Assembly: GCA_963662285.2 (NCBI GenBank)
Contig: CAXXMV010000001.1
Coordinates: forward strand, 544,001-608,000
DNA length: 64,000 bases
From: a bacterium
Lineage (GTDB): Bacteria; Hinthialibacterota; Hinthialibacteria; Hinthialibacterales; Hinthialibacteraceae
Reading direction: 5' to 3'
Shown here: positions 56,722 through 63,698 of the stretch, in pieces
Position numbering within the stretch: position 1 is the first letter of the stretch
How the letters are laid out: each line of letters begins with the position of its first letter
Notes under the pieces: generated by a model
What the model was told of the DNA's origin: nothing
Database searches by the model: none
Seen by the model: only the letters and a program-made list of their open reading frames with translations
Position numbers and translations under genes: made by a program

Positions 56722-57240
56722 TTATGCGCCAAGAAATTTATAAGAGACCAAGAAATCTACCGCCATCTTTTGAGGTCCAATAATAAAATCATTCTTCTGT
56801 AACAAACTTTCCAATATGTCGTTACATTTTTTCTTTGATATTGCGTTGCCAACATAAAGGTCTCGCAATACCATTGCGAGATTCCCAAAATCGATTTTGG
56901 CATTCCTTGAATTTATTGCTAAGAGTTTGTCTCCGGTAATGATCCTCAATTGATGATGGACGCCGCACGCAAATACTAAACTATCTATTCCTGCTAATTT
57001 TGGGCTTAATTTTGCTTTGACTAATATTTGCGATAGTTGTTTAGGGGAAGGTAGTTCCCTGATTTCTACAAATCCTCTTATTCTATCAGATGTTTCGGCC
57101 AACAAGTTATCTTCTGTCAGGCATTCTTCAATAGCATATATACCTTTAAAATACTTTTTGAAATCACCATGATCCACCAGAATGTGATCTAAGGTGATTA
57201 ATGAACAAGTATCAAAAAGAGTGTTATGCCACCATTTCAC
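56722..57240 (-). CDS. PIN-domain-like protein
   Basis: LFDTCSLI N-terminal Asp, IEEC, GIDS, ITGDKLL; overlaps the upstream XRE/ImmA gene by 17 nt. Confidence 0.65.
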   Translation of the reverse strand: MKWWHNTLFDTCSLITLDHILVDHGDFKKYFKGIYAIEECLTEDNLLAETSDRIRGFVEIRELPSPKQLSQILVKAKLSPKLAGIDSLVFACGVHHQLRIITGDKLLAINSRNAKIDFGNLAMVLRDLYVGNAISKKKCNDILESLLQKNDFIIGPQKMAVDFLVSYKFLGA

Positions 57241-58384
57241 TTTTATTATTAAGCCACCTTCCGGTCATTTCTTGGGCTTCATCAATTCTTATCTGAAACA
57301 TCTCTGCAACTTTAGACACGGAAATTTCTTCGTTGATGAAAGCAGCGTATATTAATCTCCCGAAACGATAAGATTTATTTAATGTACTAACTTGAATTGG
57401 CTCTGGCTCCAAGTTTTCCATTATAGTTTTAACTCGAATGCCTAGTTTGCGTTTAACTTCTACAATCAATGCCTTATACGTAATCGTGGTTAAACTTTCC
57501 TGCGTAAGACGCCTGAATAAACACCAAAAACTAACGCCAAAATAGCGTTTCAATAAAACTAAAGCATTAAAAACAGGAAGCCGATTAAGATGCTCCTGCT
57601 GCCAAATGCGATAGAGTTCATTTCGAGGAACCAGGAAATATCCTGCAAATATATCGGCTTCTTTTTCATAATCACGGTCATTTTCTGTATCATCCGGCTT
57701 ATTAGTAAATAGGTGTGGATGCAATACCAAATGACCCAATTCATGCGCGACGCTAAAGATGGTTCTTTCCACTGCACGGTCACGATCACGAATCATCATT
57801 AATGCCATATCATCATATAACACACTCAATGCATCAATTCCACTTTGATTCGATTTAAAGAAAAGCGGTCTGATTCCAATATTTTCAAGAAATTTAGATA
57901 TATTTTGGTAGTTAATACCTTCTCCACCGCATTTTTCTTTTACTTCGCAAGCCGCATTTTCTAACCATCTATCAGGATTCTCCTTTGCTTCTGGAGACAA
58001 ATCGCATTGAGGTATTTTGATTTGAATCTTCGAGTTTCTTATTTCCTCAATCTCAATATAAGAATTCAAATATTTTCTCGCCATTGCGATAATCTTGGGA
58101 TCGCTTTTTAATTTCTTATGTGCACGGAAAGCAAATTTAGGCGCCTGTTCCGATTGCTTCTCGGAAAACATATCCATAATGCTGCAACCGAGAGTATTAA
58201 CAATTTTCACCAAATCTTTACTGTTAGGTTCAGTCCTTCCATTCTCGTAATTAACAATAGTATTCCGGTTTACTCCAATAGCTCGCGCTAATTGGATTTG
58301 CGTTAAACCAATACTCTCTCTCTGGAATTTAATTCTCCTACTAATATCTATATTTGTATCGTCCAATTCCTCCGTGATTCCCAT
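57224..58384 (-). CDS. XRE-family HTH fused to ImmA/IrrE (peptidase M78, COG2856) domain
   Basis: RESIGLTQIQLARAIGVNRNTIVNYENG HTH; FSVAHELGHLVLH HExxH; EKEADIFAGYFLVP. GGAG RBS before ATG 58384 (ORF track 58438). Confidence 0.9.
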   Translation of the reverse strand: MGITEELDDTNIDISRRIKFQRESIGLTQIQLARAIGVNRNTIVNYENGRTEPNSKDLVKIVNTLGCSIMDMFSEKQSEQAPKFAFRAHKKLKSDPKIIAMARKYLNSYIEIEEIRNSKIQIKIPQCDLSPEAKENPDRWLENAACEVKEKCGGEGINYQNISKFLENIGIRPLFFKSNQSGIDALSVLYDDMALMMIRDRDRAVERTIFSVAHELGHLVLHPHLFTNKPDDTENDRDYEKEADIFAGYFLVPRNELYRIWQQEHLNRLPVFNALVLLKRYFGVSFWCLFRRLTQESLTTITYKALIVEVKRKLGIRVKTIMENLEPEPIQVSTLNKSYRFGRLIYAAFINEEISVSKVAEMFQIRIDEAQEMTGRWLNNKSEMVA

Positions 58385-58450
58385 GATCCTACTCCGTTTT
58401 CTGACAATCGTCCCGCCATATTCTCCCTTATTATGCATAATACTTTGTTC

Positions 58451-58478
58451 ATTTTACAGACAATTAGGTTTGAGTCAA
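58451..58478 (-). promoter_or_regulatory. sigma70 promoter of the XRE/ImmA-PIN operon
   Basis: Minus strand TTGACT-16 nt-TAAAAT. Confidence 0.6.
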
Positions 58479-58523
58479 TACTATATGCACAAATATTTGT
58501 GCATATAGTATTGACTCAAACCT
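58466..58523. repeat. Perfect 58-bp spacerless palindrome
   Basis: AGGTTTGAGTCAATACTATATGCACAAAT|ATTTGTGCATATAGTATTGACTCAAACCT. Confidence 0.9.
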
Positions 58524-58656
58524 CCTACTTGATTCTGGATTTTTCGAATAGCGAATCAGAATGCTTTTATCAAGAACCATTCTATTTCCCTATATTCCCT
58601 CTCATTCCCCAAAAAAAACCTATTGTTTTTGTCATATAGGCTAGTATAATTAATAC

Positions 58657-58855
58657 GTAGAAACATAAAACAAGGGGCCGCTCGAAGTACCATGCCCCTA
58701 TTCGGGTCTAAGAGATATTCGATCTCTTGACCAAGGTTCAAGCCTCGGAGCGCAATGTTTCGGGGAAGAGAAAGGATGGCGTGAATGATAGAAGATACGC
58801 CGCCTACAAAGTAAGAAGGGGTCATCAACTATGCACGATGGCCCCTTCGCTTTTT
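58657..58855 (+). ncRNA. Putative ~200-nt structured ncRNA, tandem copy 1
   Basis: Five hairpins ending in a terminator + U tract; upstream TTGTTT-16-TATAAT (58623-58650). Confidence 0.65.
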
Positions 58856-59034
58856 AAATAGTAATTTTTTTATTCAAAAAACCACCCTAATTCACCTATC
58901 TCTTTATCAATCAATATAATGCAGGCATATCGCAGGTATGAGATTATTTTCCTCCAGACATTTGTACTATTTATTTCCCCATATTTCCAAAAAAACCCTA
59001 TTGCATTTACCATACAGGCTGGTAAAATATATAT

Positions 59035-59230
59035 GTAGAAACAAAAACGGGGCCACTCGCAGTACAATGCCCCTATTCGGGTCTAAGAGATATTTAATCT
59101 CTAGACCATGGTTTAAGCCCCGAAGCGCAATGTTTCGGGGAAGAGAAAGGATGGCGTGAATGATAGAAGATACGCCACCAAAAATGTAAGAAGGGGTCAT
59201 CAACTATGCACGATGACCCCTTCGCATTTT
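59035..59230 (+). ncRNA. Putative ~200-nt structured ncRNA, tandem copy 2
   Basis: Homologous to copy 1 with structure-preserving substitutions; upstream TTGCAT-16-(TGn)TAAAAT (59001-59028). Confidence 0.65.
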
Positions 59231-59269
59231 AAACAACCATTGTTCTCCTATATTCCCATATCACCTGCT

Positions 59270-60784
59270 TTACCAAATCGAAGCCATATCCCATATATCA
59301 ACTGACTTGCACATGGCTGATCCACCATTAGCGGTTAGATATATCACGCTGGATTGATTCAATGCGGGAATTACAGTCGTACAACAGGCGCGATCATTAA
59401 CATATAACTCAACAACCGCTTTATCGATGAATAATTGAAATTTCACCTGCGTCTCGCCATCAAGCAACTCAAACGGACCCTGGTTTTTCTCTATGCCGAC
59501 TGTTTTATTCTTCAGGTCGAACAAAATGGGAACGCTTGCCGCTTTCTCATCAATGGTTTTTATTACCAATCCAAAAGAATCGGCTGAACCAGGTTCAAAG
59601 ACAGCCGTAATCTCTTTAGCGCATTGCTCGATTGATTCAATATATATAGGCGTAGAAGCAATTTTCCTGGCGCTGATTATGCGGTGATTCCTATGCAGTT
59701 CTTTCAATTCCGGCGCCGGTTTCATGCCCAGGCTGCCGTCCTTGAGCATGGTCATGATACGCGGCAGAGTCATGGCGCCATTCCAGCCCTTGCCTTTGAT
59801 ATCGCGAATCCAGCCCCACATAATGCGCCGCCCCTGAGCATCTTCCAGGCAATTGGGCGCATAAAAATTGTTGGAATAATCCAGCAAAGCGCGATTCCCG
59901 GAAGTGAAAGTAAAATCTTCATTGAACGATCCGGTATGATACATCACCCGGCTGTGCGGTGAATAAATTAGAGTGTACTTGTCGCCCAACTTGAAGAAAT
60001 TAGGGCATTCCCAATTTTTCTCATTATGCTCCGCTTTGGATTGATAGAGGATATTGAGATATTCCCAATCAACCAGGTTCTTGGATCGGTAAACAAAAGC
60101 GGCGCCCCGTCCATCTTTGGGGTGTCCGCCTAGAACCACGAACCAGTCTTTACCTTTCTTAAACACAAATGGATCGCGCCAGTCCAATACCTTCATATCA
60201 CCATGCAGTTTCTCTGTCATAACCGGATTAGCGGGATGCTTATCCCAGGTTAACATGTCATCATGGCTGATAGCCGCCCACTGCACCGCCCCGTCACCCG
60301 CAGGAGTTTTTGGACCAATACTGGTATAGAGCATGGTCGGTACTCCTTTATCATCAATTACGCAGCAACCCGAGAAGCAATGATCCTCGCCTTTATCTTT
60401 CGAAGGCGCCAACGCTATCGGCAGATGCCTCCAATGCGCCAGGTCCTTGCTCACCATATGCCCCCAATGCATGTGTCCCCAATTCTCGCCATAAGGATTA
60501 TGCTGATAGAACATGTGATATTCGCCCTTGTAATAAATCGGGCCATTAGGATCATTGTTCCATAAAGCTGGAGGCTGCAAATGATAAACCAGCCGCGTCG
60601 CATCTCCTTCGACGGCCTTCTTCGCCAGGGCTACAGCGGCGTTAGCTTTGGCTATCTCTCTTTGGTGAATTTCATTATGCGCTTTGATTTCAGATTGATC
60701 ATCAGAAGCGGACGAAATTACGCTAAAACCAAATATAAACAGAAAAACGGATAAACCCAATCTTAAAAATCGCTGCATTTCCAT
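59270..60784 (-). CDS. Glycoside hydrolase family 32 (beta-fructofuranosidase-like), exported
   Basis: WNNDPNG, FYQHNP, WGH, FSGC, RDP, WECP motifs. Confidence 0.92.
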   Translation of the reverse strand: MEMQRFLRLGLSVFLFIFGFSVISSASDDQSEIKAHNEIHQREIAKANAAVALAKKAVEGDATRLVYHLQPPALWNNDPNGPIYYKGEYHMFYQHNPYGENWGHMHWGHMVSKDLAHWRHLPIALAPSKDKGEDHCFSGCCVIDDKGVPTMLYTSIGPKTPAGDGAVQWAAISHDDMLTWDKHPANPVMTEKLHGDMKVLDWRDPFVFKKGKDWFVVLGGHPKDGRGAAFVYRSKNLVDWEYLNILYQSKAEHNEKNWECPNFFKLGDKYTLIYSPHSRVMYHTGSFNEDFTFTSGNRALLDYSNNFYAPNCLEDAQGRRIMWGWIRDIKGKGWNGAMTLPRIMTMLKDGSLGMKPAPELKELHRNHRIISARKIASTPIYIESIEQCAKEITAVFEPGSADSFGLVIKTIDEKAASVPILFDLKNKTVGIEKNQGPFELLDGETQVKFQLFIDKAVVELYVNDRACCTTVIPALNQSSVIYLTANGGSAMCKSVDIWDMASIW

Positions 60785-62203: not shown

Positions 62204-63698
62204 TGTACAGACCGGGTAGATGGGTAACACATGTTCGGGGACATGGGTTACAGTTTTTTATCAAAACCGGGATTTATCCCAGGTTATTGTTTGAGTTTTT
62301 TTTTAGGCATCTAGAGATGCTCAGGATAATTGGTTGGCTTAGAGGGAGGAGGTGAATATTTCACCTCCTGCATTATCCCTCGCACCTCGGATCGGCTATC
62401 CCTGGCGGGTTGCACTCCTGCAGCGCCCGCTTCCGTTTCGCCCAACCAATTTCTATTGTGACGCCTTTTTCTGGATTGCCAAGTTATCTTCTTTGATTTC
62501 ATTCAAACGCAGATCGAGCGTCTTGATTTTTTGTCGGCAAAAATATACGTCCATCATCCCATCGGTCATAGCGGGTTTCAAGGCAACCGGGCATCCTACC
62601 AGGGCGCGGCTCACCCGGTAATCTTCACCACGGTACGCCACCCGACCTCCTTGTTGCACCTTCCTGATAATGCTGCCCGGCGCGTACTCGATATCCGGCA
62701 AACTTCCCGGATAAACAAAAGGACTGGACGTATAATGGTTAGCCGGGACATCCATATCCAGGGCTTCGTGAGGACGCTCAAAATTGTATTCATAACGCCA
62801 CTCATCAAACCGCCTTTGGCAATATTCCAAATCCACAAACGATTCCCTTATCAGCAATTCTTGCTTAAAGGTCCGGTGAAATCGCTCGACCTTGCCTTGG
62901 GTTTGCGGATGGTAGGGGCGACCGTGATACACGCGAATACCCAATCGTATCAGCCATATTGTCAATCTGGTGTATTCGCAGGTTTTGCATCCTCCCCACG
63001 GACTTCCGTTATCCATCAACATCGCCCGAGGCATACCATACATCCTGAACACGCTTTCCAGGGAGTCTTGCACGGTTTCCCTTTGCTGATTGGCGCACGA
63101 AAATAATCCGGGAACAAAGCGCGTGCAATCATCCAGAATGCTGAGCGGATAACAGCGTGCTTTGAGCGTGGGAAAATCTCCTTTGAAATCCATTTGCCAC
63201 AATTCGTTGGGCGTATCTTTTTCAAAACGCTTATAGGCTTTGTGCTTGTGACTTTCCTTTTCATCCAGCAATCCCAGTCGGCGTAACACGGCAGTAATAG
63301 TGCTGGCGCTAGGAACATTTTCGTATCCCAATTGAATCAGACGAGAGCGAATTTTGCGTCCTCCCCATCCTTTTTCGCGATTTTCTGTAATGGCTTGCTC
63401 GATAGACTTATCTGTTTGATGAGGGCAAGTATTGGGTTTTTTGGAACGGTCTTGGAGATTTTCGACTCCTCCTTCTTTGTACCGTTTGATCCATTTGTAA
63501 CCCGTCTTACGGCTGATATCAAACCGTTTACATAATTGGCTGATGTTGCTTTCTTCTTGCTGGCTCAACAATACGAATTCTTTTCTCAGAGACATAAGGT
63601 CCACCTCGTTCCAGGGCATATTCTTCGCCTCCTTTCAAGGCTAGAATACACTCAGGGAATGTGTTACCTATGTCCCCGAACACCTGTTACCCATGTCC
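62204..63698 (-). mobile_element. IS481-family element, copy 2 (left IR interrupted)
   Basis: Near-identical to 38792-40298 in reverse orientation; the terminal 12 bp of the left end are replaced by another IS. Confidence 0.9.
62453..63619 (-). CDS. IS481-family transposase
   Basis: Protein identical to 38883..40049. Confidence 0.95.
   Translation of the reverse strand: MPWNEVDLMSLRKEFVLLSQQEESNISQLCKRFDISRKTGYKWIKRYKEGGVENLQDRSKKPNTCPHQTDKSIEQAITENREKGWGGRKIRSRLIQLGYENVPSASTITAVLRRLGLLDEKESHKHKAYKRFEKDTPNELWQMDFKGDFPTLKARCYPLSILDDCTRFVPGLFSCANQQRETVQDSLESVFRMYGMPRAMLMDNGSPWGGCKTCEYTRLTIWLIRLGIRVYHGRPYHPQTQGKVERFHRTFKQELLIRESFVDLEYCQRRFDEWRYEYNFERPHEALDMDVPANHYTSSPFVYPGSLPDIEYAPGSIIRKVQQGGRVAYRGEDYRVSRALVGCPVALKPAMTDGMMDVYFCRQKIKTLDLRLNEIKEDNLAIQKKASQ

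Follow-up and report, generated by a model that had tools for sequence, protein, structure and literature searches.

The question raised by this locus is what two closely similar stretches of about 200 nt on the + strand encode: an RNA acting as such, a short peptide, a leader controlling a neighbouring gene or, on the opposite strand, a protein. The window (the whole analysed stretch of DNA, 64,000 nt) was therefore searched for repeats, folded, compared with related genomes and matched against RNA libraries and known RNA families.

A tandem pair of structured transcription units

The initial annotation described two tandem homologous units 375-378 bp apart, which is borne out by the repeat search of the window and by alignment. 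The two units of about 200 nt are 89-91% identical. The direct repeat covers 202 nt (58668-58869 / 59043-59244) with a spacing of 375 and 89% identity, and the promoter segments (58609-58669 / 58987-59047) are spaced by 378 and are 80% identical. The pair is flanked by genes on the opposite strand, with HTH_3 and Peptidase_M78 genes upstream and a convergent GH32 gene downstream. Unit 1 is followed by the second RNA unit and unit 2 by the convergent GH32 gene, and no co-oriented gene that could take read-through is located downstream of either window unit. The features are as follows.

58611-58650, + strand: promoter of unit 1 with A-tract (58611-58618), -35 box TTGTTT (58623-58628), 16-nt spacer and -10 box TATAAT (58645-58650)
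58657-58856, + strand: predicted transcript of unit 1, about 200 nt with five hairpins (5' end deduced from the -10 box)
58674-58698, + strand: hairpin 1 of unit 1, GGGGC / GCCCC with a variable 15-nt loop (fold)
58681-58817, + strand: stretch of unit 1 found in RNA-library contigs (X3, X9), with an adapter directly before 58681
58705-58732, + strand: hairpin 2 of unit 1, GGTCTAAGAGAT / ATCTCTTGACC (fold)
58743-58765, + strand: hairpin 3 of unit 1, CCTCGGAGC-GCAAT-GTTTCGGGG (fold, covariation)
58769-58776, + strand: Shine-Dalgarno (SD) sequence of unit 1, AGAAAGGA, 8 nt upstream of the ATG (16S complement)
58774-58804, + strand: hairpin 4 of unit 1, in which the SD-side strand GG-A-TGGCGT pairs with ACGCCG-CC (Thr-Pro-Pro codons)
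58785-58814, + strand: mini-ORF of unit 1 from ATG to TAA, nine codons, MIEDTPPTK, with the terminator stem directly after the stop codon
58815-58855, + strand: hairpin 5 of unit 1, intrinsic terminator with a 12-bp stem GAAGGGGTCATC / GATGGCCCCTTC and a 10-nt loop (fold, covariation)
58851-58855, + strand: T-tract of unit 1, 3' of hairpin 5
58987-59028, + strand: promoter of unit 2 with A-tract, -35 box TTGCAT (59001-59006), 16-nt spacer and -10 box TAAAAT (59023-59028)
59035-59232, + strand: predicted transcript of unit 2, about 198 nt with hairpins 1-5 (fold)
59049-59073, 59080-59107, 59118-59140, 59149-59179 and 59190-59223, + strand: hairpins 1-5 of unit 2 (fold)
59056-59194, + strand: stretch of unit 2 found in RNA-library contigs (X3, X4, X5), with adapters at both ends
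59144-59189, + strand: SD (59144-59151) and mini-ORF (59160-59189) of unit 2, MIEDTPPKM, stop codon TAA at 59187-59189
59190-59230, + strand: terminator hairpin of unit 2 with T-tract (fold)

When the + strand is folded, the minimum-free-energy structure of each unit contains all five hairpins named in the initial annotation. Unit 1 folds with -71.2 kcal/mol (z -4.14) and unit 2 with -75.8 kcal/mol (z -6.91), and none of 200 shuffles folded as well as the two units. The - strand of unit 1 folds worse (-60.2 kcal/mol, z -2.22). The same five hairpins were found in the folds of all seven full-length close relatives. Among 22 homologues, both-sided (compensatory) changes occur in 9/9 pairs of hairpin 3 and in 6/12 pairs of the terminator hairpin 5, and this covariation supports the proposed + strand RNA under structural selection. 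Hairpin 4 shows zero compensatory change in the same 22 sequences and its GGCG/CGCC pairing is nearly invariant. Overall, paired cells amount to 94.1% compared to 83.1% in shuffles and 34-49% with the partner columns slid. Hairpins 1 and 2 are made of different sequence in two other genera. The loop of hairpin 1 is variable even among close relatives, and other genera carry a hairpin of different sequence at the same place; in place of hairpin 2, G017 has another helix of 10 bp and G010 a GC-rich one. The four substitutions between the copies which swap G.U for Watson-Crick pairs are all real (T/C and G/A in hairpin 3, G/A in ACGCC[G/A] and G/A in the 3' arm of the terminator), but the one in ACGCC[G/A] is equally a synonymous third-position change of a proline codon.

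Each unit had also been credited with its own promoter. The hexamers are present at the listed positions, and an A-tract + CTATTG(C/T) and TAnAAT were found at equal spacing upstream of homologues from other genera. A simple consensus promoter scan called neither promoter, because the -35 hexamer matches at 3/6 positions only; the support for the promoters therefore comes from these elements conserved in other genera. The consensus scan for terminators likewise left the + strand terminators of both units uncalled, because their 10-nt loop exceeds the limit of 8 of the scan. The same scan reported a terminator-like site on the - strand at 59223-59190, where the terminator hairpin of unit 2 also reads as a terminator behind the convergent GH32 gene. 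The pattern CTATTGC-N17-19-TAnnnT has 52 matches in the own genome, and the A-tract context is found only at RNA copies 2 and 3. No wider regulon sharing this promoter motif is apparent.

The units are present in RNA libraries, where contigs from four studies cover both of them with 95-100% identity; such contigs do not report strand, level or true RNA ends. For unit 2, the adapter junctions are located at 59056/59058 and 59189/59193/59194. Illumina adapters directly at the contig ends indicate short inserts. Over a 701-nt stretch, the contig cover of four runs is confined to 58681-58817 and 59056-59194, and the gaps are not evidence of silence. Small shares of the words of the units were also seen in eight RNA runs and several DNA runs, four of which were examined by contig.

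A short reading frame next to the terminator

The initial annotation classified the units as non-coding RNAs. This holds for the structured RNA, but it overlooks the most conserved feature, an SD and a start codon with a mini-ORF that ends at the terminator. The term non-coding is only partly right, because this mini-ORF/terminator module is the conserved core. The 16S rRNA of the own genome ends in ...GGATCACCTCCTTTCT, and AGAAAGGA is a perfect 8-nt complement of this 3' tail. In most homologues the SD has 5-8 nt complementary to the 16S tail and a spacer of 6-11 nt. Besides the SD, no conserved single-stranded stretch was seen among the homologues compared.

For analysis of the mini-ORF, 39 non-overlapping matches of the R2 search were used, 36 of which were testable. 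A mini-ORF had to contain at least 4 sense codons and to end 0-2 nt upstream of the terminator stem. This arrangement was found in 34 of the 36 homologues compared to 1.44 expected from shuffles. The two exceptions are L012, which has no start codon, and L009, in which the stop codon is lost and the frame would extend to 17 aa. The 34 frames use TAA (14), TGA (12) and TAG (8) as stop codons and ATG (27), GTG (6) and TTG (1) as start codons, and the predicted peptide has a length of 5-10 aa in 33 of them. In 21 of 22 sequences, the ATG and the ACG/GCG codon are separated by 6, 9 or 12 nt; the remaining sequence is again L012, which lacks the start codon. In five close relatives the stretch from the SD to ACGCC is invariant, including the loop of hairpin 4, which contains the start codon. 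In the same five, the proline codons differ synonymously at their third positions, and the two final sense codons (TK, KM, TH, AD) are hypervariable, with the stop kept as TAA or TGA. From the constant stop and the hypervariable final codons it follows that length and end-point are constrained and the C-terminal residues are free.

A motif x-(D/E)-(T/A)-P-(P/T) occurs two codons ahead of the stop in 24 of the 34 peptides. The peptides of distant members are unrelated (e.g. MPTET, MTECHQ, VRKTQSSG), and a peptide-specific stall would therefore not be family-wide. TPP may be conserved because ACGCCACC has to pair with the SD-side strand. Hairpin 4 takes up part of the SD in its stem, and this partial sequestration would lower initiation. 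The 5' arm of hairpin 5 is SD-like (GGAAGGAG) and its 3' arm resembles an anti-SD. Constrained folding of 14 members with the SD-side strand forced open revealed no antiterminator, and hairpin 5 stays fully paired. As no structure competes with hairpin 5, nothing suggests regulated termination. The ribosome is probably part of how the RNA works, since the nine-codon frame is conserved and ends exactly at the terminator hairpin.

Distribution of the family

Neither a covariance-model search of the whole window against Rfam 15 at gathering score nor the Rfam search of 16 homologue loci gave a match, and no tRNA or tmRNA gene was found by ARAGORN at 58000-59800. The absence of a known RNA family, as initially suggested, was thus confirmed. 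At E up to 10, Rfam 15 gave only chance matches, of miRNA type on a palindrome at 58458-58534 and one on the terminator, and seven further-tested loci gave one chance match only (E 0.98). Full-text literature searches on small RNAs and on Omnitrophota/Hinthialibacter gave no paper on such an RNA. By these searches the RNA family is undescribed, and it is lineage-restricted and absent from Rfam.

The own genome contains five copies, the two in the window and those at C6:86897, C1:315723 and C3:132473. Unit 2 is the top match to R1 (137.2 bits) and the second-ranked match to R2 (115.9 bits), and unit 1 matches R1 and R2 at 58740-58858 with 130.6 and 107.6 bits. Within the taxonomic family, 18 of the 19 other genomes have R2 matches, and these related copies argue against a chance pattern. 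The RNA was found neither in 15 further genomes of the phylum, which was sampled with 35 species, nor in 66 outgroup genomes. Tandem pairs are also present in G010, G013 and one syntenic metagenome pair. For the metagenomes, the window-type SD/hairpin 4 motif gave 24 matches, which are real on two contigs only (L070 and L076); these form the syntenic tandem pair and share the same upstream palindrome. A blastn search of plasmid and phage collections gave no match. A search of the own genome for a stop codon followed by an SD-like hairpin revealed no members beyond the five known copies. When a named genome collection was scanned for the ORF-end/terminator pattern, 16 matches were obtained against about 13 by chance (a rough estimate). 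Five of the 16, from 'uncultured bacterium' (3) and 'Candidatus Omnitrophota bacterium' (2), were confirmed by R2, and the other 11, from unrelated phyla, were judged to be chance matches.

The neighbourhood of the homologues is diverse. A convergent gene lies 20-143 nt behind the hairpin in 7 of 22 homologues, and the co-oriented downstream genes are mutually unrelated. The sequence of the window-type 5' hairpins is not conserved between genera, nor are the 5' single-stranded linkers and loops. Another subtype has a conserved 5' domain of its own, again next to mutually unrelated genes.

Interpretation and comparison with known systems

We lean, by somewhat more than an even chance, towards the view that the units are small transcripts, independent and putatively abundant, built around a conserved mini-ORF/terminator module that engages the ribosome. 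Computed were the two + strand units, their fold, covariation and distribution, the conservation of ORF, SD and stop, and the presence in RNA libraries, from which we infer translation, a coupling of ribosome and hairpin, and any output. Each unit would be its own gene for a five-hairpin RNA of about 195 nt, presumed to be abundant. The core of the family would be the 3' module and not the 5' hairpins. It would consist of hairpin 3, a strong SD, an ORF of 5-10 codons that begins in or beside hairpin 4 and whose stop codon lies 0-2 nt short of hairpin 5, and, as a very stable terminator, hairpin 5. A ribosome would load on the SD and translate the mini-ORF, and to reach the stop codon it would have to melt the lower half of hairpin 5, so that ribosome occupancy would decide how stable or abundant the RNA is or whether its 3' arm becomes exposed. 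If slowed at Pro-Pro, the ribosome would halt just ahead of hairpin 5, and the module could thus report translation capacity, e.g. the supply of Pro-tRNA or EF-P. The 5' hairpins are interchangeable among members and are probably stabilisers, a sensor or a target-binding domain.

That the units are purely non-coding trans-acting sRNAs, whose hairpins, C/U-rich 3' arm or linkers would bind mRNAs or a protein and whose ORF would be incidental or untranslated, seems unlikely to us. The strong fold and the covariation argue for it, as do the own promoter and terminator, the tandem multi-copy arrangement familiar from known sRNA families, and the partial pairing of the SD in hairpin 4. An RNA chaperone could presumably also use the AAGAGAAAGG stretch and the U-tail. 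This explanation is at odds with the start-to-stop frame ending at the hairpin in 34/36 homologues (1.44 expected), in which all three stop codons are used and loop length changes in multiples of 3 only, and with an SD that exactly complements the 16S tail at canonical spacing. The 5' linkers and loops are unconserved between genera, so that no seed region is evident. The opposite explanation, a micropeptide gene, takes the 9-residue peptide as the product, be it a signal, the precursor to a modified peptide or a ligand of the ribosome or an enzyme, with the RNA structure providing only stability and high yield. A strong SD, a tiny ORF, stable hairpins and several copies would yield much peptide, and the x-(D/E)-(T/A)-P-(P/T) motif recurs in 24/34 peptides. 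The mccA peptides, too, are described in PMC6495379 as poorly conserved in sequence with length kept. Against a peptide product, the peptide sequence is not conserved across the family, the two C-terminal residues are hypervariable even among copies that are 89-91% identical, codons 1-5 vary no more at synonymous sites than elsewhere, which points to a constraint at the RNA level, and no conserved enzyme, transporter or receptor gene was found among the neighbours examined. We rate a micropeptide gene as distinctly unlikely.

A leader peptide plus terminator is also the classical layout of an attenuator, and the units could be cis-acting leaders (attenuator or riboswitch) governing read-through, the window copies being orphaned or antisense to the convergent gene. 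Behind some homologues, at 114-519 nt, genes follow on the same strand (NMO-like in three genomes; also MFS, CLC and a two-domain ABC ATPase), the hairpin is without T-tract in three homologues having such genes, and the 5' domains of other subtypes appear aptamer-like. Each window unit, however, is followed by another promoter or a convergent gene, convergent genes are found in 7/22 homologues, and the downstream genes are mutually unrelated. In L014, L015 and L018 the element is separated from the gene by promoter-like sequence (a TATAAT), and the constrained folds of 14 members contain no antiterminator alternative. We consider a cis-acting leader improbable. Hardly credible is a real gene in the antisense ORFs of 90 and 78 aa (- strand, 58556-58828 and 58967-59203). 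Long stop-free frames do exist in all seven close relatives (56-68 codons of 63-69). Their phase differs, being 1 in copy 1, copy 2, L070 and L076b and 2 in copy 3, G017 and G010, so that the ORF is not conserved in frame. No Pfam match was obtained at E up to 0.1, the G.U/Watson-Crick swaps become A.C mismatches on the - strand, and this strand folds worse. A - strand protein or type I toxin was rejected, given the phase shift of the open frame between homologues and the lack of a Pfam match.

A bolder idea, offered tentatively and with low probability, is a new class of ribosome-gated riboregulators that combine one expression platform with at least three unrelated structured 5' domains. The platform would comprise the SD, the fixed-end ORF of 5-10 codons and a terminator hairpin mimicking an SD:anti-SD duplex. 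The 5' domains (the window type and two others) would each have their own signal to sense or target to bind, and would set the ribosome loading on the mini-ORF. Melting of hairpin 5, or its failure, would then determine the level or activity of the stand-alone RNA, an orphan 'riboswitch-sRNA' read out by translation instead of an antiterminator. Through its Pro-Pro codons, the mini-ORF could in addition be sensitive to the supply of proline or EF-P.

The mini-ORF/terminator module of the preferred reading resembles the mccA short transcript of the microcin C operon (E. coli, H. pylori) in architecture, with a tiny ORF, a strong SD and an adjoining intrinsic terminator; this MccA-type minigene layout is predicted for the units. 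According to PMC4231749, mccA RNA is highly abundant and 105-107 nt long; its ORF of 7 codons has a strong SD, an intrinsic terminator is present, and the bound ribosome induces termination and gives exceptional RNA stability. PMC6495379 describes reiterative translation of 2-8 codon ORFs as possible, the ribosome staying on the mRNA, and states that MccA precursors all end in Asn. Both kinds of transcript are short (about 100-200 nt) and, presumably here too, very abundant, with 7 codons there and 5-10 here. The units are not members of the microcin C system. None of the 34 predicted peptides has a C-terminal Asn, and no mccB-like (adenylyltransferase) or other biosynthetic gene lies downstream of the units. 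Unlike mccA, they have three extra 5' hairpins and are multi-copy, stand-alone RNAs. The mccA terminator is masked by upstream RNA, and such an alternative fold is not predicted here. If the coupling of ribosome and hairpin is real, the mccA principle, in which ribosome occupancy decides what becomes of a tiny transcript, would have a second, independent example, far more widespread and with no biosynthetic operon attached, and the family would be a compact natural module sensing translation status.

The family is a well-supported and undescribed one, and its lineage is little studied and for the most part uncultured. The most conserved feature of an apparent textbook non-coding sRNA is a minimal frame with its stop codon pinned at the foot of the terminator. 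This calls for caution in sRNA annotation, since one hairpin without covariation and with an invariant loop was here the clue to coding.

Other known systems share parts of this layout. The trpL, pyrL, erm and cat leaders are ribosome-mediated attenuators, in which the position of the ribosome relative to a hairpin is the working principle, and in rnTrpL/peTrpL of Sinorhizobium the terminated leader RNA and the peptide are each functional. Like the units (34/36 within 0-2 nt), attenuator leaders have a short ORF ending at or overlapping the terminator. Unlike them, the window units have no regulated downstream gene, the 14 folded members show no antiterminator, there are no regulatory codon runs beyond Pro-Pro, and the copies are scattered as well as tandem. 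Dual-function sRNAs such as SR1/SR1P, RNAIII/hld, SgrS/SgrT and VcdRP carry a translated small ORF in a structured RNA. They are likewise small structured RNAs with their own promoter and terminator and a small ORF (predicted here), but their ORFs have 26-43 codons and lie away from the terminator, compared to 5-10 codons with the stop at the terminator foot here. LhrC1-4, NsiR1, PrrF1/2 and Qrr are tandem multi-copy sRNAs with separate promoters and terminators. These sRNAs are non-coding and shorter and have no sequence or Rfam similarity to the units, but they are alike in being head-to-tail paralogues with further copies elsewhere in the genome.

Structure of the two units and their mini-ORF

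The two units lie on the + strand between two genes of the - strand. A repeat search revealed a direct repeat of 202 nt (58668-58869 versus 59043-59244, 89% identity, spacing 375), and the promoter segments are repeated as well (58609-58669 versus 58987-59047, 80%, spacing 378). Together with a pairwise alignment, this bears out the initial annotation of two homologous units. The alignment also displays the four described substitutions that swap G.U for Watson-Crick pairs, and all five listed hairpins are present in the + strand folds of both units. These folds reach -71.2 kcal/mol for unit 1 (z -4.14) and -75.8 kcal/mol for unit 2 (z -6.91), in each case with 0 of 200 shuffles as good, whereas the - strand of unit 1 folds less well (-60.2 kcal/mol, z -2.22). 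The promoter hexamers were found at the positions described. A consensus scan did not call them, the -35 hexamer matching only 3 of 6 positions, so that the promoter assignment leans on conservation in homologues. The + strand terminators were not called by the scan either, on account of their 10-nt loop. Read on the - strand, the terminator of unit 2 (59190-59223) is again a terminator-like hairpin with a T-rich tail; the convergent GH32 gene, with its stop at 59270, probably uses it as well.

Features of the two units and their surroundings
56722-57240, -: ORF of 172 aa directly downstream of the HTH_3 + Peptidase_M78 gene, overlapping its end by 17 nt
57224-58438, -: gene of a 404 aa protein with HTH_3 and Peptidase_M78 domains
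58769-58776, +: Shine-Dalgarno (SD) sequence AGAAAGGA of unit 1, perfectly complementary to the terminal 8 nt (3' end) of the organism's 16S rRNA
58785-58814, +: mini-ORF of unit 1, MIEDTPPTK
59160-59189, +: mini-ORF of unit 2, MIEDTPPKM
59270-60784, -: GH32 hydrolase gene

An ATG is located in the loop of hairpin 4, 8 nt downstream of the SD AGAAAGGA. It opens the frame ATG ATA GAA GAT ACG CCN CCN, followed by two codons and a TAA, which abuts the first base of the terminator stem (hairpin 5) in both units. This arrangement was analyzed in 36 of the 39 non-overlapping matches of the covariance model R2 described below; one match at a contig end and two weak ones in locus L034 with less than 30 aligned nt were left out, the latter two having no such mini-ORF. 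An ORF of at least 4 sense codons ending 0-2 nt before the stem was identified in 34 of the 36 homologues, compared to 1.44 expected from shuffling of the same stretch. The exceptions are L012, where the start codon is absent, and L009, in which loss of the stop extends the frame to 17 codons. The 34 mini-ORFs end with TAA (14), TGA (12) or TAG (8) and start with ATG (27), GTG (6) or TTG (1). All except one encode 5-10 residues, and most are preceded by an SD of 5-8 nt at a distance of 6-11 nt. A start codon is present in 21 of the 22 first-round matches, and in these the Thr/Ala codon lies 6, 9 or 12 nt from it. The classification as ncRNA genes stands with respect to strand, structure, autonomy and novelty against Rfam, but is incomplete as regards the term "non-coding".

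In five close relatives the segment from the SD through ACGCC is invariant, including the loop of hairpin 4, and the two Pro codons vary at third positions. Nowhere in the RNA is variation higher than at the last two sense codons (TK, KM, TH, AD). The stop is retained as TAA or TGA. Nearer subtypes carry a (D/E)-(T/A)-P-(P/T) motif exactly two codons ahead of the stop. Distant members encode unrelated tiny peptides (MPTET, MPIST, MTECHQ, VRKTQSSG and others), all of them still ending at the hairpin. Judged from these comparisons, the act and the end-point of translation appear to be conserved, not the peptide sequence.

A new RNA family with exchangeable 5' domains

At gathering score, Rfam 15 has no match anywhere in the window. 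With the threshold relaxed to E 10, only miRNA-type chance matches on the neighbouring palindrome and one on the terminator were found between 58400 and 59400. Searches of 16 homologue loci gave no Rfam match, and a permissive threshold applied to 7 loci resulted in one chance match (E 0.98). ARAGORN identified neither tRNA nor tmRNA at the units, in agreement with the earlier statement that they were not recognised as tRNA, 6S, SRP, tmRNA or a known riboswitch, and nothing similar occurs in the plasmid and phage collections.

With blastn, the genome shows a third copy (C6:86899-87081, 86%), and 3 of the 19 other genomes from the taxonomic family give weak matches. The covariance model R1, built from the 3' two-thirds of 6 sequences, gave 22 matches across 13 of the family's 20 genomes, and R2, rebuilt from these, has matches in 18 of the 19 other genomes at E up to 1e-3. 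R2 found none in 6 genomes of the order's two sister families, in the 9 remaining genomes of the class (E up to 1e-4; the class represents the whole phylum, with 35 species in the collection) or in 66 genomes of other phyla. The named genome collection yielded five confirmed matches, in MAG records titled "uncultured bacterium" or "Candidatus Omnitrophota bacterium". The RNA family is new and, as far as searched, confined to a single taxonomic family within a small phylum that is mostly uncultured. Five copies are present in the own genome, further tandem pairs occur in the related genomes G010 and G013, and a syntenic pair with the same upstream palindrome was found on two metagenome contigs.

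In an alignment of 22 sequences, compensatory changes were observed at 9 of 9 pairs of hairpin 3 and at 6 of 12 pairs of the terminator; overall, 94.1% of the cells pair, compared to 83.1% after shuffling of the columns and 34-49% after sliding of the partners. The five hairpins recur in the folds of all 7 full-length members of the window subtype. The proposed structural selection on a + strand RNA is thus upheld by covariation and by the shared fold. Hairpin 4 has no compensatory changes and a nearly invariant GGCG/CGCC core, because it contains the SD and the beginning of the mini-ORF. Hairpins 1 and 2 are built from different sequence in two other genera. Long stop-free antisense frames exist in 7 of 7 close relatives; relative to an invariant motif they are in phase 1 in copies 1 and 2 and the two metagenome copies and in phase 2 in copy 3, G017 and G010. 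As the phase differs among close relatives and no Pfam match was obtained, an antisense gene was rejected.

Across the family, at least three distinct 5' domains, none with an Rfam match, are joined to the same 3' module:

Type 1: hairpins 1 and 2, as in the window
Type 2: GGGAGGGCGAC...ATCGCCC hairpin and GTTGTGAAAC loop, e.g., own-genome copy C1:315723-315846, - (L028)
Type 3: conserved elements GGGCGCC..GCCC, GTGGCAGTGATGCCAT and GTCCCC..GGGGAT, e.g., own-genome copy C3:132473-132576, + (L080)

The mini-ORF of L028 encodes MLNKLAPPDG; 165 nt downstream of this copy, a gene in the same orientation encodes two ABC ATPase domains in an ABC-F-like layout. Two units of the third subtype stand in tandem in L023 (G010:C231, 1135-1824). 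The second of them carries the conserved 5' domain twice in series, followed by one mini-ORF/terminator module, which recalls tandem aptamers.

Possible function of the mini-ORF/terminator module

The ribosome would load on the SD, open hairpin 4 and translate the mini-ORF. For the stop codon to enter the A site, several base pairs of hairpin 5 would have to be unwound. When the Pro-Pro codons occupy the P and A sites, the front edge of the ribosome would, given the established dimensions of its footprint, just reach the foot of this hairpin. The fixed spacing of two codons suggests a ruler. The 5' arm of the very stable terminator is itself SD-like (GAAGGGG in the units, GGAAGGAG in most members) and is complementary to the 3' arm.

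The closest studied analogue is the mccA RNA, described as a highly abundant RNA of 105-107 nt that combines an ORF of seven codons with a strong SD and an intrinsic terminator, and in which ribosome binding induces termination and results in exceptional stability (PMC4231749). Reiterative translation is reported for very short ORFs (PMC6495379). However, none of the predicted peptides of the family ends in Asn and no mccB-type gene follows the units, so that membership in the mccA system was rejected; in its architecture the family varies the mini-ORF/terminator theme in a new way. A ribosome-gated riboregulator, a reading based on the modular 5' domains without Rfam match, seems rather unlikely. 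Since constrained folding of 14 members gave no antiterminator alternative, we favour a predicted effect on the fate or activity of the RNA over regulated read-through. The RNA could act in trans via the 5' hairpins or the 3' arm, supply a peptide or titrate ribosomes.

Genomic context and RNA libraries

A convergent gene is located 20-143 nt behind the element in 7 of the 22 first-round homologues. Co-oriented downstream genes, where present, are 114-519 nt away and belong to varying families (NMO-like in three genomes, MFS, two-domain ABC ATPase, CLC channel, beta-lactamase family, PQQ propeller). Among the cases inspected, L014, L015 and L018 contain a promoter-like TATAAT in the interval that separates the element from this gene. 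The element therefore behaves like an independent gene. In these three loci (three genomes, two genera), where the NMO-like gene follows at 255-519 nt, hairpin 5 is conserved and the T-tract behind it is absent; the hairpin is thus kept even where a classical intrinsic terminator is impossible.

A word index revealed 8 RNA runs containing part of the stretch, and contigs from four of them (four studies, aquatic and sediment metatranscriptomes) were aligned. They cover 58681-58817 of unit 1 (runs X3, X9) and 59056-59194 of unit 2 (X3, X4, X5) with 95-100% identity. Illumina adapters directly at 58681, 59056/59058 and 59189/59193/59194 indicate short inserts of about 137-139 nt, which begin in the loop of hairpin 1 and extend to the stop codon or terminator foot. 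In different studies the inserts of both units start at the equivalent C of "CTCG" in this loop (58681, 59056), 21-24 nt downstream of the predicted transcript start. The contigs document presence in RNA libraries; strand, level and true ends are beyond their evidence. The insert ends may result from processing or from library chemistry, with the 5' end lost and, presumably, the terminator interior unprimed.

The interval separating the RNA pair from the divergent HTH_3 + Peptidase_M78 gene contains a perfect palindrome (58466-58523, 29-nt arms, no spacer). It includes the -35 TTGACT of a promoter-like site for this gene (58478-58451, -) and is probably the operator of the XRE-type regulator. 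On metagenome contig L070, the orthologous RNA has a similar palindrome upstream. A Pfam search at E up to 0.1 gave no match for the 172-aa ORF downstream of the regulator gene. An identical 140-nt stretch beginning with GGATTTATCCCAGG occurs at 18 places in the genome, two of them in the window (about 40162, -, and 62340, +), one copy adjoining an rve/IS481-type transposase gene (62453-63619, -); the stretch probably represents the end of an insertion sequence present in multiple copies.
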